DNA of 48,351 nt from a virus (taxonomy: Duplodnaviria; Heunggongvirae; Uroviricota; Caudoviricetes), in the IMG/VR virus record IMGVR_UViG_2654588181_000001; one strand, written 5' to 3'. Each line of letters begins with the position of its first letter. Positions within the stretch are counted from its first letter, which is position 1. This document shows, one piece after another, positions 25,974 through 39,339 of this stretch. A model generated the notes under the pieces. That model had not been told where the DNA came from. It saw only the letters and a list, made by a program, of their open reading frames with translations, and made no database searches. Position numbers and translations under genes: made by a program.

Positions 25974-26049
25974 TGGTGGCCCCTACCGGATTTGAACCGA
26001 TGACCGTGCGATTATGAGTCGCCTGCTCTAACCACTGAGCTAAGGGGCC
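25974..26049 (-). tRNA. tRNA with CAU anticodon (Ile2/lysidine type or Met), CCA encoded
   Basis: 76-nt cloverleaf: GGCCCCT acceptor stem, D-arm TAGCTCAGTGGTTAGAGCA, anticodon loop CTCATAA, T-loop GGTTCAAATCC, 3' CCA; first ~42 nt match my recollection of E. coli ileX. Confidence 0.8.
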
Positions 26050-34439: not shown

Positions 34440-35096
34440 ATGAAAAGCAACGACGAGAACATCAAGAAAGAAATAGGTCTGCGCATTCAGACTCTACGGA
34501 AACAATCCGGCATGACTGCCGGAGATCTCCAGCAAGTCACTGGAATAGGCTTAAGCACCTTGCAGAACTATGAGGCCGGATTAAGACAACCATCTATACC
34601 TGCCATCAAGAAAATCGCGCACGCCCTAAAAGCATCAGCGCCTTACATCGCGTGCTTAACAGATAACCCGTTCCCACCCCAGAATACTAACGCTCCTGTT
34701 ATTCCTGGGCTTGTAGCTATAAAAAATGACATAGCATCGCACGCCGGAGAAAAGCCTGTGCTGGCGATAGAACAGGAGATTTTACGAAGCAAGAACATCA
34801 ACCCATCGTCTCTGTCAGTTCTCCAGAGCAACGATGAGTTAATGTCACCAACAATATCCCCTGGCTCCCAAGTCCTGATTAATACAGACGATACAGAGAT
34901 TCATGAGGGGATCTATGCCCTTGAAGACAGAAATGGCCTAGTTGTTTTGAGGCACTGTAGAGTCATACCGGGTGACAATGCTGTTATGCTGTCAACCGAA
35001 AGGGATGCTGAAATGAACACTAAGCATCTGAATAACGAGGAATTTAAGCGTTATAAAGTTCTTGGCCGCGTAGTTAGTGTTGTCAACTGGTTATGA
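34440..35096 (+). CDS. CI-like repressor (HTH plus S24/LexA-like autocleavage domain)
   Basis: 218-aa ORF; N-terminal HTH; C-terminal ELMSPTISPGSQVLIN resembles S24 Ser-nucleophile region. Confidence 0.8.
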   Translation: MKSNDENIKKEIGLRIQTLRKQSGMTAGDLQQVTGIGLSTLQNYEAGLRQPSIPAIKKIAHALKASAPYIACLTDNPFPPQNTNAPVIPGLVAIKNDIASHAGEKPVLAIEQEILRSKNINPSSLSVLQSNDELMSPTISPGSQVLINTDDTEIHEGIYALEDRNGLVVLRHCRVIPGDNAVMLSTERDAEMNTKHLNNEEFKRYKVLGRVVSVVNWL

Positions 35097-36880: not shown

Positions 36881-36903
36881 TAAAAAAGGCCCCCGAAGGG
36901 GCC
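36881..36903 (-). terminator. rho-independent terminator
   Basis: GGCCCC-CGAA-GGGGCC hairpin followed by T-run on minus strand. Confidence 0.5.
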
Positions 36904-36909
36904 TAATCG

Positions 36910-37029
36910 CTACTTGCTGCTAATGTTTATCGTCACATTCAGAGCGTTATCAGTAATCTTCCAACCCTCCCCATGTGGCGTAAACAAAGCTCCAGTAACA
37001 ACGATAAAAATACACATACAGTATTTTTT
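36910..37029 (-). CDS. small hydrophobic peptide (40 aa) with own SD and terminator
   Basis: MKKYCMCIFIVVTGALFTPHGEGW...; AAGGG 8 nt upstream of ATG; terminator immediately downstream. Confidence 0.35.
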   Translation of the reverse strand, partial: KKYCMCIFIVVTGALFTPHGEGWKITDNALNVTINISSK

Positions 37030-37785
37030 CATTGTGTGGCCCTTACAGGCCGTTTCACGGCATCCCCACCGACGAAAACAACGCGAGAGCAAGCACGGCT
37101 GCTTGTGCTTGCATGTACGGCAACAGGAAATCCTCCCCTAAAGTCGGTGCCCGGGTGCGAATCGGCGGGAAGGTCCACAGGTATTTTACGATTATTTTAA
37201 GATTAGTAATAGGAAAGAAATTAAACGAAAAAAACAGTTTATTTTCACAAAATCAGTAACCTACCCACAATCTGTGAGTTTGCTGACACAACAAGAACCA
37301 CAATTTTTTGATGTATAATAGTGGACTATTATTACCTTTTGAGTAAAATCAATTTGCTGCTTGTGCTTGCGTGGTTGTTTATACAACAACGTAATGCTGA
37401 AAGGACCGCGAATCCGATCAGCACGAAAGAACCGTCCTCAATAGGGCGGTTTTTTTGTTTCTGCCTACCAATAAACCCACGCTATGTGGTTGTCTCTGTT
37501 AAAATCCCGCCGTATTGACATGAATGCGCCATTGGTGGACACTTTCCGAGCCGTAGCAAAATCTACGGTCGGGATTAGCCTCCTGAATAACACGATGGCG
37601 CATACCGCGTTAGCGGTTTTTTTATGCGTAGAGCACTGTTACGCCCAAATTATGGTGGGTCGTACAGGGGCGGAGAAATCCGCGCCGGTTCGTCATTGTG
37701 TCCGGTAAGGCTAACCCTGTACGGCTCACCACCATTTGATTAGCCTCGAATGGCGGTGATAGTTCCATATACTGGAGATATCACA

Positions 37786-37977
37786 ATGACAAACCTACCC
37801 CATGACTATTACGTCAACCTCGTAAAGATCCTTCTCAAGAAAGCCTCATACGCCGATAAATTCCGCCTGGCTGAAATCATCGAGCGCGAAGCTATGCGCA
37901 TCGCCAGCAACGATAACGCTGTTTCTGACGCAAAAATCTCCCTCGTAACCAAAGTAGTTATGGGAGGTGCAAAATGA
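37786..37977 (+). CDS. small ORF overlapping antirepressor start (icd-like position)
   Basis: Stop overlaps ant ATG (ATGA at 37974..37977); start uncertain. Confidence 0.35.
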   Translation: MTNLPHDYYVNLVKILLKKASYADKFRLAEIIEREAMRIASNDNAVSDAKISLVTKVVMGGAK

Positions 37978-39116
37978 AAACGCTTCCGACCGTTAACACC
38001 CTACAGCCTATCCTGCATAACCAGATCCCCGTTATCACTAGTGAACTTCTGGCGCAGTTATACGGAACAAAAATCAAAAACATTTCTGATAACTTTCTGA
38101 ACAACACGACGCGATTCGTAGCCGGAAAGCATTACTTTAAAATTGAAAAAAACGAATTACGCGAGTTCAAGAACAGACCCGAAACAATCGGGTTAGTTGG
38201 TAAAAATGCCCGCTCCCTAATTCTCTGGACCGAACGCGGGGCTGCACGTCACGCTAAAATGCTCGAAACCGATCAGGCGTGGGATGTATTCGAACGGCTG
38301 GAAGACTGCTATTTCAGCCAGAACGCGCAAACGGCCGCGACCGTAACCGTCTCGCCAAACAATGCTCGTGAGGTTGTCGATACGCTCAACGCCAAACCGA
38401 TGTTTTACATTAAGGTGTGCAATAACGAGCCACTCACAACCTCAGCCGATGTTGCCCAGGCATTCAGCACCACAAACAATTCCATCGTTATGGCCATCGA
38501 TGCGCTACGCATTCCTCGCACGGCTGCGGCGCGTCACTTCTTTAAAGAGCAACGACCGTTGGAAGGAAGCGACCGCGAAATAACAATCTATCGCATGACA
38601 AAAGACGGATTTACCTTGCTCATGGAGAGCATCGACGGTCCAGGCGTGAAAGATATCAAGCTGGCCTACATTGAAGCCTTTAACGCTATCAGCAGCGTGT
38701 TAAAAACACAGTACGAGCGTGATCTGGCTAAACGACTGTACCAGGAAAAAACGATTATCCGCGCGGCAACAGAGCATAATCGGCTATTAACGGAACCGAA
38801 CTACAGGAAGGAACTAATCAAGGAGTTTGACAAGGCAACAGGGAAAACCAAAGCGGCGCTAAATCTGCCAGCAATGACTCAGGAAAATGTGATATCAGCC
38901 TTACTTCTTGATCTGCTCAGAAACGCCAGAGCACTTATCAGCTTTGACGAAAACCTGAATCCTCAGCTCAAGCTACTACCACCGACAGGCAAAGTAGTCG
39001 ACCAGGCTGATCACAACAGCATACTCAGCGTACTGGATGCAAACCTGCCAGCCAGGACACTACAGGATCTGATAAAAACATGTGCTGATAAGCTGGCACA
39101 GAAAAGCAGACCATAA
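37974..39116 (+). CDS. antirepressor (Ant-like)
   Basis: 380-aa ORF; N-terminal KilA-N/ORF6N-like segment; operator-like CCCACGCTATGTGGT upstream at 37477..37491. Confidence 0.7.
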   Translation: MKTLPTVNTLQPILHNQIPVITSELLAQLYGTKIKNISDNFLNNTTRFVAGKHYFKIEKNELREFKNRPETIGLVGKNARSLILWTERGAARHAKMLETDQAWDVFERLEDCYFSQNAQTAATVTVSPNNAREVVDTLNAKPMFYIKVCNNEPLTTSADVAQAFSTTNNSIVMAIDALRIPRTAAARHFFKEQRPLEGSDREITIYRMTKDGFTLLMESIDGPGVKDIKLAYIEAFNAISSVLKTQYERDLAKRLYQEKTIIRAATEHNRLLTEPNYRKELIKEFDKATGKTKAALNLPAMTQENVISALLLDLLRNARALISFDENLNPQLKLLPPTGKVVDQADHNSILSVLDANLPARTLQDLIKTCADKLAQKSRP

Positions 39117-39126
39117 CTACAAGGGG

Positions 39127-39339
39127 CTACGGCCCCTTACTCTTTTCTCTCTTATCAACGCCAGAGACTTTCTGAAAATCCTTTCGAATAGCGTCAGCAT
39201 CACGCGCCAAGCCCATACTGGAACGCGTCGCCATATGACGAAAATGATCGACTGCCGGAAACAAAGAAATAATGGACCCAATAGCTTGCAGCAAACTCGC
39301 TTTTCTACGCATCATAATTCCACCATAACCGATAACCAC
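39127..39339 (-). CDS. hypothetical small protein
   Basis: 70-aa ORF ending at bidirectional hairpin after ant; G-rich tract upstream. Confidence 0.3.
   Translation of the reverse strand: MVIGYGGIMMRRKASLLQAIGSIISLFPAVDHFRHMATRSSMGLARDADAIRKDFQKVSGVDKREKSKGP

Follow-up and report, generated by a model that had tools for sequence, protein, structure and literature searches.

The window, that is the whole stretch of 48,351 nucleotides analysed here, carries an antirepressor gene (ant) preceded by a small ORF and by approximately 450 bp in which no CDS is annotated in RefSeq relatives (Table 1). The elements of this locus follow one another in the order promoter, a1, b1, terminator-like hairpin, c4, a2, b2, small ORF and ant, and annotated P1 immI is matched element by element, including the position of a2 directly past c4 and the 4-nt overlap of small ORF and ant. 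The original prediction had proposed a P1 immI-type layout with a c4-like antisense RNA, and both proposals held: all elements correspond to annotated P1 immI, and the Rfam scan for C4 (RF01695) was positive, with 70.8 bits against a cut-off of 45 over model positions 1-87. We consider it very probable that the locus is the immI-type antirepressor operon, with c4 control, of a ~48 kb E. coli phage-plasmid. This kind of switch is already familiar in phages, and the copy in the window is without annotation in public records. The phage-plasmid family is present in 74 of 5426 complete genomes. Membership in the pSLy3 phage-plasmid group was considered for the element and dropped, given that pSLy3 sits in the SSU5 supergroup and the element has P2-like myovirus tail genes.

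Table 1. Coordinates of the operon, its RNA elements and the neighbouring module, as positions in the window
Feature	Coordinates	Strand	Basis
Putative ryfA/timP-type toxin mRNA gene, 40-aa ORF (37032 down to 36913), outside operon	36882..37178	-	Rfam RF00126
Putative timR-like sRNA gene, outside operon	37322..37458	+	ryfA complementarity, terminator, fold
Predicted operon promoter P_isrK (P1 P51b counterpart)	37515..37543	+	register with P1, Gifsy-1 and relatives
IsrK / c4-a1b1 type small RNA	37550..37623	+	Rfam RF01394
a1 target site GATTAGCCTC	37573..37582	+	exact repeat and complementarity to a'
b1 target site ACACGAUGGCG	37589..37599	+	duplex with c4 loop; position as b1 of relatives
IsrK terminator, ACCGC GUUA GCGGU then U7	37604..37623	+	Rfam fold and terminator scan
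C4 antisense RNA gene	37648..37736	+	Rfam RF01695
b' segment, loop of c4 hairpin 2, GGUUCGUCAUUGUGU	37687..37701	+	complementary to b2
a' segment, single-stranded c4 junction, AAGGCUAA	37707..37714	+	complementary to a1 and a2
a2 target site GATTAGCCTC	37738..37747	+	exact repeat; position as P1 a2
Local hairpin sequestering SD GGAG (37774-77) and 5' edge of b2	37755..37784	+	predicted folds
b2 target site CACAAUGACAAACC, over AUG 37786-88	37782..37795	+	complementary to b'
Small ORF, 63 aa, phrog_7886	37786..37977	+	SD-preceded ATG
Antirepressor gene ant, 380 aa, ORF6N and Rha domains	37974..39116	+	Pfam, PHROG
Terminator-like hairpin past ant	39121..39138	+	terminator scan

As had been predicted, the stop codon of the small ORF overlaps the ant start as ATGA (37974-37977). 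The small-ORF product corresponds to a 'hypothetical protein' in relatives (WP_000183351.1), and BLASTP found no similarity between it and P1 Icd, or between Ant and P1 Ant1. Ant contains the Pfam domains ORF6N (1.4e-20) and Phage_pRha (2.8e-12), falls in PHROG anti-repressor families and shares 73% identity in its first 150 aa with the experimentally characterised AnrP of Gifsy-1. The gene has a strong SD of its own (GGGAGG, 37962-67), so any dependence of Ant on small-ORF translation is an assumption. In related loci, the first gene past c4 may itself be an antirepressor gene (Rha, Bro-N or ORF6N), may encode a member of the 'Derepression' family or may be a small ORF, and the small-ORF-plus-ant arrangement is therefore not universal. 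A following ORF of at least 80 aa was detected for 6 of 41 small first ORFs, a count made by crude ORF detection in loci of which some are incomplete.

The ~450 bp upstream of the small ORF had been taken for a single leader but contain three RNA genes together with a promoter belonging to the operon; the transcribed leader would measure ~236 nt, from a predicted transcription start near 37550 to the ATG at 37786. The promoter consists of a -35 element TTGACA (37515-20), a 17-nt spacer and a weak -10 element GACACT (37538-43). A simple promoter scan skipped it because the -10 element matches just three of six positions, and the same scan did not call the TATAAT at 37314-37319. We placed the promoter instead by its register with the annotated P1 P51b and Gifsy-1 isrK promoters and by its fit to the TTGnnn/TATAnT consensus of 40 distinct related loci, which together suggest that the operon is transcribed from 37515-43. 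A search for LexA boxes found none near the operon, and no match to the P1 C1 operator consensus was obtained when up to three mismatches were allowed.

The first RNA of the operon was matched by the Rfam isrK family with 65.7 bits (cut-off 50). It folds into two 5' hairpins, the 3' one of which presents a1 in its loop, followed by a single-stranded b1 and an intrinsic terminator, and the homologous P1 stretch (a1/b1) matches RF03163 (c4-a1b1) as well as isrK, the latter below the cut-off. The terminator was independently called by a terminator scan, and its short stem would fit partial read-through such as that shown for Gifsy-1 IsrK (PMC4825925). Two hairpins followed by T-runs had been noted upstream of the small ORF, and both do exist, although at slightly different positions (stems at 37431-37450 and 37604-37617, T-runs to 37456 and 37623). 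The second of them is this terminator, which ends the IsrK-type RNA carrying a1 and b1.

Predicted pairing and covariation of c4 with its proposed target sites

The c4 sequence folds with -46.1 kcal/mol (z = -6.07; MFE identical to centroid) into a long closing stem, which also shows up as an inverted repeat; the stem surrounds a pair of hairpins, and the junction on the 3' side of the second is single-stranded. This fold is retained in the MFE and centroid structures of the 251-nt leader. By homology to the P1 annotation, mature c4 is predicted at ~37654-37733 (80 nt), with the conserved sequence AAUUAUGG flanking its 5' side and CCACCA at its 3' end, both as in P1. These features agree with a 5' end made by RNase P, excision from a longer RNA, and translational repression in trans by c4, all of which stay predictions here. 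The antisense RNA had been expected within 37320-37640; that placement was off by ~100-300 bases, with c4 lying just downstream of the second hairpin. The interval 37320-37640 takes in the operon promoter and IsrK and leaves c4 outside.

The best duplex partners of a' and b' in this region of the window are exactly the four proposed sites. The 48 kb window contains just two exact copies of GATTAGCCTC, both on the plus strand of the operon leader. The original prediction had seen this repeat and read it as an RNA and its target. Both copies are indeed exact, the first lying 22 nt and the second 1 nt from the positions given for them, and the second ends 38 nt before the ATG, in line with the predicted ~40 nt; their assigned role did not survive, as a1 and a2 are two identical targets of a'. 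An exact 10-mer repeat within 650 nt is expected ~0.2 times by chance and is unconvincing alone, so its significance derives from the family-wide covariation. The a1:a' duplex has an energy of -15.5 kcal/mol, with 9 of 10 nt complementary (37573-82 against 37708-17), and a2 begins 4-5 nt past the predicted c4 3' end, as compared to 4 nt in P1. The loop segment b' (GUCAUUGUG) is complementary to b2 at 13 of 14 nt, and the duplex of b1 with the c4 loop (-15.4 kcal/mol) comprises 11 bp including two G-U pairs.

The position of b2 is informative with respect to the likely target of c4. Each of the eight plasmid-family members has a b2 that lies across the small-ORF AUG and a b' loop with CAU in it; in most relatives, unlike in the window, b2 ends in the SD (GGA/GGAG). 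The ribosome-binding region is therefore indicated as the target. The local hairpin that sequesters the SD appears in both the MFE and the centroid leader folds, and four sequence types of this plasmid family preserve it through compensatory changes. Since the SD is already sequestered in this way, c4 may not be the sole brake.

To follow these pairings across the family we used 113 non-redundant loci, from a sample of at most 120 that was limited to c4 genes whose core is canonical. These loci contain 26 a' types and 57 b' types in 73 combinations, which we refer to as barcodes. A complementary site was present for a2 in 71, for a1 in 63, for b2 in 62 and for b1 in 46 of the 73 barcode types, and a complement of a' of at least 7 nt lies within 8 nt of the c4 end in 71 of them. 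Pairing of a' with a2 reached 98.6%, as compared to 73.1% in shuffles and 27-42% when the site was slid, with 130 versus 30 double-change cells. Similarly, b':b2 pairing was 85.4% versus 56.1% in shuffles, double-change cells numbered 138 versus 53, and cognate b2 duplexes were stronger than non-cognate ones (-15.8 versus -9.3 kcal/mol). At least four a/b barcodes occur among members that are ~90-98% identical over the stretch, each of them consistent at all sites. Plasmid C311_p2 carries a' AGUUCC and b' AUUCCAUGGUGA. The a' type UACGCC is found in 48 of the 113 sampled loci. The covariation is compatible with pairing in trans and with pairing inside the precursor, and does not tell the two apart.

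A proposed switch and competing readings

On the RNA families, fold, complementarities, family covariation and gene layout observed here, we build a model in which c4 processing, its action in trans, translational repression and coupling to ant, together with the decoy role of IsrK and the inactivation of the element's repressor by Ant, are taken by analogy from P1 and Gifsy-1. An HTH/S24-like gene product encoded at 34440-35096 is a candidate for that repressor. Transcription from the 37515-43 promoter would start near 37550, and most transcripts would end at the 37604-23 terminator, giving a ~74-nt IsrK-type RNA that carries a1 and b1. Read-through RNA would contain c4 followed by the mRNA of the 63-aa ORF and ant, and c4 would be excised from it as a ~80-nt RNA, a step carried out by RNase P in P1. 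Through a' and b', c4 would then pair with a2 and b2 of the mRNA, and with b2 lying over the AUG this would block 30S initiation on the small ORF. If Ant synthesis needs small-ORF translation (by coupling and/or Rho polarity, as in P1), Ant would stay off and lysogeny would be kept. The short IsrK-type RNA, which offers both sites, would compete for c4 and in excess would turn Ant on. Points that weigh against the scheme are the weak -10 element, the two G-U pairs needed for b1 pairing in the window, the lack of relationship between the two proteins and P1 Icd and Ant1, the strong SD of ant itself, the location of b2 on the AUG instead of the SD, and the local hairpin over the small-ORF SD.

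A broader reading is possible, and we put it forward tentatively: decoy, c4 and mRNA would form a three-RNA circuit whose independently exchangeable barcodes sort co-circulating phage-plasmids and prophages into immunity groups, shared barcodes would lead to cross-repression or derepression of antirepressors, and P1 c4, Gifsy-1 IsrK/orf45 and P4 CI would be one mechanism.

It seems to us rather unlikely that control is instead of the P4 type, in which the RNA mainly causes premature transcription termination via the upstream, seqA-like sites a1/b1 and the downstream, seqC-like sites a2/b2 and does not block translation initiation. P4 seqA-CI-seqC likewise has sites on either side of the RNA, b1 directly adjoins the terminator hairpin, and the Gifsy-1 authors themselves liken IsrK to seqA (PMC4825925). 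However, the invariable location of b2 on the small-ORF AUG, the matching CAU in the b' loop of the plasmid family and the SD at the end of b2 in most relatives all point to the ribosome-binding region. The two outputs are compatible with each other, since in P1 the repression of icd translation leads to transcriptional polarity.

We regard as improbable a cis switch of the Gifsy-1 type without free c4, in which a1/b1 would pair with a'/b' in cis to keep the mRNA inactive, short IsrK would open this structure in trans, and the c4 fold would be incidental. Compensatory mutations in Gifsy-1 (isrK G28A/G31A with C162U/C159U) do support pairing of IsrK with the Rfam C4 region, and a1/b1 do co-vary with a'/b'. 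Hfq binding, and activation of read-through mRNA translation in trans by the short form, are described for Gifsy-1 only (PMC4825925). Against a cis switch, the MFE and centroid structures of the 251-nt leader contain the c4 fold and no a1b1:a'b' helix, and the c4 fold is strongly favoured (z = -6.1) and fits a covariance model built on many phages. Moreover, the covariation of a2/b2 with a'/b' would be left unexplained, and a processed ~80-nt species was observed in Gifsy-1 itself, where this RNA lies downstream of IsrK and where IsrK read-through and IsrK-dependent activation of anrP translation are also reported (PMC4825925).

The literal layout of the original prediction, with one ~450-nt leader whose promoter includes the TATAAT (37314) and an antisense RNA arising inside 37320-37640, is very improbable. 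A perfect TATAAT is present at 37314-37319, and two terminator-like hairpins do occur downstream of it. However, this TATAAT is without an acceptable -35 element and is absent from Yersinia phages, c4 maps to 37648-37736, a promoter conserved in the family lies at 37515-43, and relatives retain the operon despite a 680-bp insertion that carries an HTH gene in opposite orientation and falls between 37462 and 37473, and thus between the neighbouring timR/ryfA module and the operon. The TATAAT and the first hairpin, thought to belong to the operon leader, go with a putative timR-like sRNA gene. The TATAAT lies just upstream of this gene, which has a promoter-like TGGACT-16-TAAAAT at 37322-49, a predicted RNA at ~37356-37458 with a fold z-score of -5.5, and a terminator whose stem is followed by T7.

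The timR-like RNA is complementary to the 5'UTR of the neighbouring ryfA match (RF00126; 140.1 bits, cut-off 80) over 15 exact nt, or 18 nt with one G-U, a length equalled or exceeded in 1 of 2000 shuffles, and Yersinia phages have a compensatory C-to-T change on both sides of this pairing. We relied on the exact-complement test and the comparison of relatives because whole-RNA duplex prediction was uninformative, shuffles scoring equally. Even with a permissive threshold, Rfam returned nothing for 37150-37560 beyond RNAI and Phe-leader matches that stayed sub-threshold; timR thus lacks a family in Rfam. By sequence, the pair has the features of a timP/timR (ryfA) type I toxin-antitoxin locus, of which timR loci have a published description (PMC7667032), with a putative toxin and putative repression. 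The sRNA is divergent from ryfA, pairs by its 5' end in prediction and closes with an intrinsic terminator.

Finally, we give hardly any credence to the c4 stretch encoding a protein, an 'Ash'/orf45-like ORF forming a real upstream cistron: annotation of relatives includes an 'ash family protein' with its start inside c4 and with 26.1 bits for its N-terminal 39 aa against a Pfam Phage_ASH cut-off of 26.0, and Gifsy-1 orf45 is reported to be translated, but the frame in the window is a 39-aa ORF without an SD or any family match that runs from the terminator T-run to a stop inside a2, the frame is open in relatives only because it continues into the 63-aa ORF, and stem changes in the Rfam alignment and in relatives are compensatory at the RNA level.

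Relation to known immunity systems

Among known systems, P1/P7 immI (P51a/b, a1, b1, c4, a2, b2, icd, ant1/ant2) has the same order and spacing of RNA elements, a c4 of the same Rfam family, the same 4-nt overlap of small ORF and ant, and a promoter in the same register. The differences lie in the proteins, Icd and Ant1 in P1 as compared to a phrog_7886 protein and an ORF6N+Rha antirepressor in the window, and in b2, which is on the SD in P1 and on the AUG in the window. In addition, the a1/b1 element of the window is scored as a complete IsrK, clean terminator included, the -10 element is weak, and a P1 C1-type operator was not matched.

The Gifsy-1 locus of Salmonella, isrK-orf45(STnc1160)-anrP-isrJ (Hershko-Shalev et al. 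2016, PMC4825925), likewise combines IsrK, a C4-family RNA and an ORF6N antirepressor under a promoter in the same register, and our Rfam scan placed isrK and then C4 directly upstream of anrP. There, c4 is directly followed by the antirepressor gene and overlapped by the reported orf45, whereas in the window a separate 63-aa ORF with its own SD stands between c4 and ant, isrJ and an antQ neighbour are lacking, and the module sits on a plasmid-prophage, where that of Gifsy-1 is part of an integrated lambdoid prophage. The Gifsy-1 paper leaves P1, P7 and immI unmentioned and cites P4 CI instead (PMC4825925), and a 2025 review still handles Gifsy-1 IsrK and P1 c4 separately (PMC12197685). The present comparison shows that, as far as their sequences tell, Gifsy-1 IsrK/STnc1160 and P1 a1b1/c4 are the same module.

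Satellite phage P4, with seqA, CI RNA (seqB) and seqC, also makes a processed RNA with complementary sites up- and downstream in the same transcript, and its SeqA RNA was called a structural homologue of IsrK by the Gifsy-1 authors (PMC4825925); however, the effect in P4 is that transcription of replication genes terminates prematurely, and no antirepressor is involved. In P22, sar is a small antisense RNA that limits antirepressor translation (PMC12197685), but it is cis-antisense and made from the opposite strand, whereas c4 of the window is co-transcribed on the same strand and would act at two short barcoded sites.

These findings leave the known mechanism unaltered. They give a proposed function to a 1.1 kb stretch that is blank in RefSeq for this E. 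coli phage-plasmid family, namely that of a secondary immunity switch deciding whether the antirepressor gets made. If the three-RNA circuit with exchangeable barcodes proves true, P1 c4, Gifsy-1 IsrK/orf45 and P4 CI would be unified, though described separately, and unrelated elements sharing barcodes could repress or derepress each other's antirepressors. The variety of barcodes within one family offers a ready test bed for heteroimmunity between plasmid-prophages.

RNA elements and pairing sites of the antirepressor operon

When the entire window was scanned against Rfam, four RNAs scored above the curated cut-offs, namely C4, isrK, ryfA and one tRNA. The original prediction had placed a c4-like antirepressor operon at 37280-39116 and proposed an Rfam check for its antisense RNA; that check was positive, the finding is real, and the interpretation was correct in kind. 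The predicted c4 fold is the expected long stem enclosing two hairpins (z = -6.1), and it is retained in the predicted structure of the 251-nt leader. An alignment of 40 distinct relatives, P1 and Gifsy-1, anchored at the first IsrK hairpin, shows that TTGnnn and TATAnT hexamers 17 nt apart are conserved upstream of IsrK in the register of the annotated P1 promoter P51b, and the corresponding hexamers of the window predict a transcription start near 37550. Further downstream, the SD lies sequestered in a local hairpin (37755-84) that is conserved, and the four family types show compensatory changes in it.

Several motifs of the original prediction were also found, including two hairpins with T-runs (at 37431-56 and 37604-23), the ATGA overlap of the small-ORF stop and the ant start (37974-77), a TATAAT at 37314-19 and an exact 10-nt repeat. 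The first copy of this repeat lies at 37573-82 rather than 37595-604, and the second at 37738-47; because the c4 junction segment a' is complementary to a1 and a2, the two copies of the repeat are the two a sites. The TATAAT was not called in the promoter scan because it has no usable -35; it lies directly upstream of a separate timR-like gene, and relatives do not conserve it in this form. A lone 10-mer repeat or a lone -10 hexamer has no significance by itself. The best duplex partners in an unbiased scan of the region were the same four sites, a1, a2, b1 and b2.

Features of the window and of compared loci (L126-L129, relatives)
Feature	Sequence	Position	Strand	Remarks
tRNA, anticodon CAU	window	25977-26049	-	tRNA-Ile in pP136-7 annotation
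Candidate primary repressor	window	34440-35096		HTH_3 domain
ryfA	window	36882-37178	-	Rfam, 140 bits, cut-off 80
Operon promoter (predicted)	window	37515-20; 37538-43	+	-35 TTGACA; weak -10 GACACT; family alignment register
isrK	window	37550-37623	+	Rfam, 65.7 bits, cut-off 50
a1	window	37573-82	+	GATTAGCCTC in loop of IsrK hairpin 2; complementary to a'
b1	window	37589-99	+	complementary to c4 loop b'
C4 antisense RNA	window	37648-37736	+	Rfam, 70.8 bits, cut-off 45
b', c4 loop	window	37687-701	+	complementary to b1 and b2
a', c4 junction	window	37707-14	+	AAGGCUAA, complementary to GATTAGCCTC
a2	window	37738-47	+	directly 3' of c4; complementary to a'
b2	window	37782-95	+	complementary to b', 13/14 nt; spans AUG at 37786
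95-aa ORF	L129; L126; L128	2667-2954; 2315-2602; 2566-2853		counterpart in window 37624-37743
Insertion-borne gene	L127; L128; L129	1671-2210; 1639-2211; 1739-2311

The leader also holds a perfect 9-nt inverted repeat (ATGCGCCAT at 37524-37532, ATGGCGCAT at 37595-37603), whose arms fall in the promoter spacer and in b1 plus the terminator foot and are both conserved in the plasmid family; it may represent paired operators or have arisen by chance (~0.8 expected). Neither a LexA box nor a P1 C1 operator was present in the scanned neighbourhood of the operon. In addition, 19 nt between ryfA and timR (37248-37266) share 79% identity with the stretch around b2 and the start codon of the small ORF (37782-37800), which may reflect a past recombination event or chance.

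Covariation of the pairing segments

We listed 120 viral contigs with a conserved c4 core, leaving a' and b' unconstrained, and among these listed contigs removal of redundancy left 113 loci, in which 26 types of a' and 57 of b' formed 73 combinations (barcodes). With a site scored as present where a complement of at least 7 nt lay at the expected place, a2 was found in 71 and a1 in 63 of the 73 barcode types of this 113-locus sample, and b2 and b1 in 62 and 46, respectively. For a':a2, 98.6% of cells were paired, as compared to 73% when shuffled and 27-42% with the partner slid, and double changes occurred in five of seven pairs. For b':b2, tested on 12-nt loops only, which were not chosen for success, 85.4% were paired versus 56%, and eight of nine pairs co-vary. 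Cognate duplexes were much stronger than non-cognate ones. Within the window's plasmid family, whose members are ~90-98% identical over this stretch, at least four different barcodes occur, each altered consistently in its a elements (a1, a', a2) and in its b elements (b1, b', b2), and in all compared members b2 covers the AUG of one and the same 63-aa ORF. The barcode AAGGCU/UUCGUCAUUGUGU is common to the window and its complete relative pP136-7 and is absent from the other 112 loci of the sample.

With family memberships, complementarities and covariation established for the window's module, P1 and Gifsy-1 (PMC4825925) serve as guides to its mechanism: c4 would be processed by RNase P, act in trans and repress translation, with coupling to ant and an IsrK-type decoy role likewise expected. 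Because the 17-bp closing stem of c4 has a' at its distal end, and a2 begins only 4-5 nt past this stem, pairing of a' inside the intact folded precursor is sterically unlikely, and we therefore infer that action in trans, or after refolding, is favoured.

Three IMG/VR contigs (L018, L038 and L061) carry two or three c4 genes each, with differing barcodes and, in L018 and L038, at a spacing of ~650 bp, which suggests tandem arrays of c4-controlled cassettes.

A neighbouring ryfA/timR-like module on a phage-plasmid

The 5' part of the reported region is a module separate from the antirepressor operon. In three relatives an insertion of ~680 bp, between window positions 37462 and 37473, separates precisely the first hairpin from the operon promoter. 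Its gene, oriented opposite to the operon and divergent from the isrK promoter, encodes a 190-aa HTH_3 protein that may be a dedicated operon repressor without a counterpart in the window. The first hairpin ends an RNA whose predicted start is at ~37356, behind a promoter-like TGGACT-16-TAAAAT. The first 15 nt of this RNA (18 nt with one G-U) form a perfect complement of a site in the ryfA 5'UTR that precedes the RBS of a 40-aa ORF by >60 nt, and Yersinia phages show C-to-T on both sides of this complementarity. This arrangement fits what has been published on timP/timR type I toxin-antitoxin loci (PMC7667032); the plasmid and prophage terms looked for do not occur in the text of the TimP paper. 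The stretch 36882-37458 contains a ryfA/timP-type toxin RNA (minus strand) and a divergent timR-like sRNA, adjoining the immunity operon on a phage-plasmid. The pair may be a plasmid-addiction module, and both genes are unannotated in RefSeq relatives, where the 1.1 kb from the partition genes to the small ORF is without any annotated feature.

Over the 2 kb around the operon, circular plasmids (~47-50 kb) from E. coli and E. albertii and the Yersinia phages vB_YpM_39/41/44 share 94-98% identity with the window. Since pP136-7 (48,077 bp) carries genes for myovirus tail, capsid and terminase along with RepA, ParA, a RelE/ParE pair and an XRE-type regulator, the window, at 48,351 bases, is essentially one entire phage-plasmid. 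Of 5426 complete E. coli genomes, 74 contain related DNA, nearly always plasmid-borne.

Proteins and comparison with P1 and Gifsy-1

The 63-aa ORF falls in phrog_7886, a family of unknown function, and shows no similarity to P1 Icd. Ant contains ORF6N and Rha domains, matches many PHROG anti-repressor families and is 73% identical to Gifsy-1 AnrP over its first 150 aa; on comparison it is unrelated to P1 Ant1. In the candidate primary repressor Peptidase_S24 is sub-threshold (18.4 bits, cut-off 23.3), and what we take to be the usual Ser-Met and Lys motifs seem, by eye, altered (LMSP, VLGRVV), which would fit a non-cleavable repressor needing an antirepressor for induction.

The 95-aa ORF annotated in relatives ('ash family protein' in L129, 'hypothetical protein' in L126 and L128) starts within the c4 gene and extends into the real 63-aa ORF. 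Its c4-derived N-terminus barely attains the cut-off of Phage_ASH in Pfam and also hits several PHROG families labelled 'transcriptional regulator'; therefore these protein profiles seem to include translations of the c4 RNA gene.

The annotated P1 genome has promoters P51a/b, a1, b1, c4, a2, b2, icd and ant1 in this order, with a2 four bases past c4, b2 just ahead of icd and a four-base icd/ant1 overlap. The window combines RNA parts from curated Rfam families with a P1-like layout and a Gifsy-1-like antirepressor, differing in minor respects: b2 is placed over the AUG, the first cistron has no relation to Icd, the -10 is weak and the barcode is the AAGGCU/UUCGUCAUUGUGU type noted above. As a side observation, the Gifsy-1 orf45/STnc1160 region is a full-score C4 RNA (L002, the Gifsy-1 locus, 2321-2404, 69 bits).

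The operon would not surprise a specialist. A 2025 review gives IsrK and c4 as unrelated systems (PMC12197685), and the 2016 Gifsy-1 paper (PMC4825925) does not mention P1, P7 or immI. Because the P1 a1/b1 stretch matches Rfam c4-a1b1 and, below cut-off, isrK, and Gifsy-1 has isrK and then C4 immediately upstream of anrP, P1, Gifsy-1 and the window share, as judged from these matches, a single RNA module.
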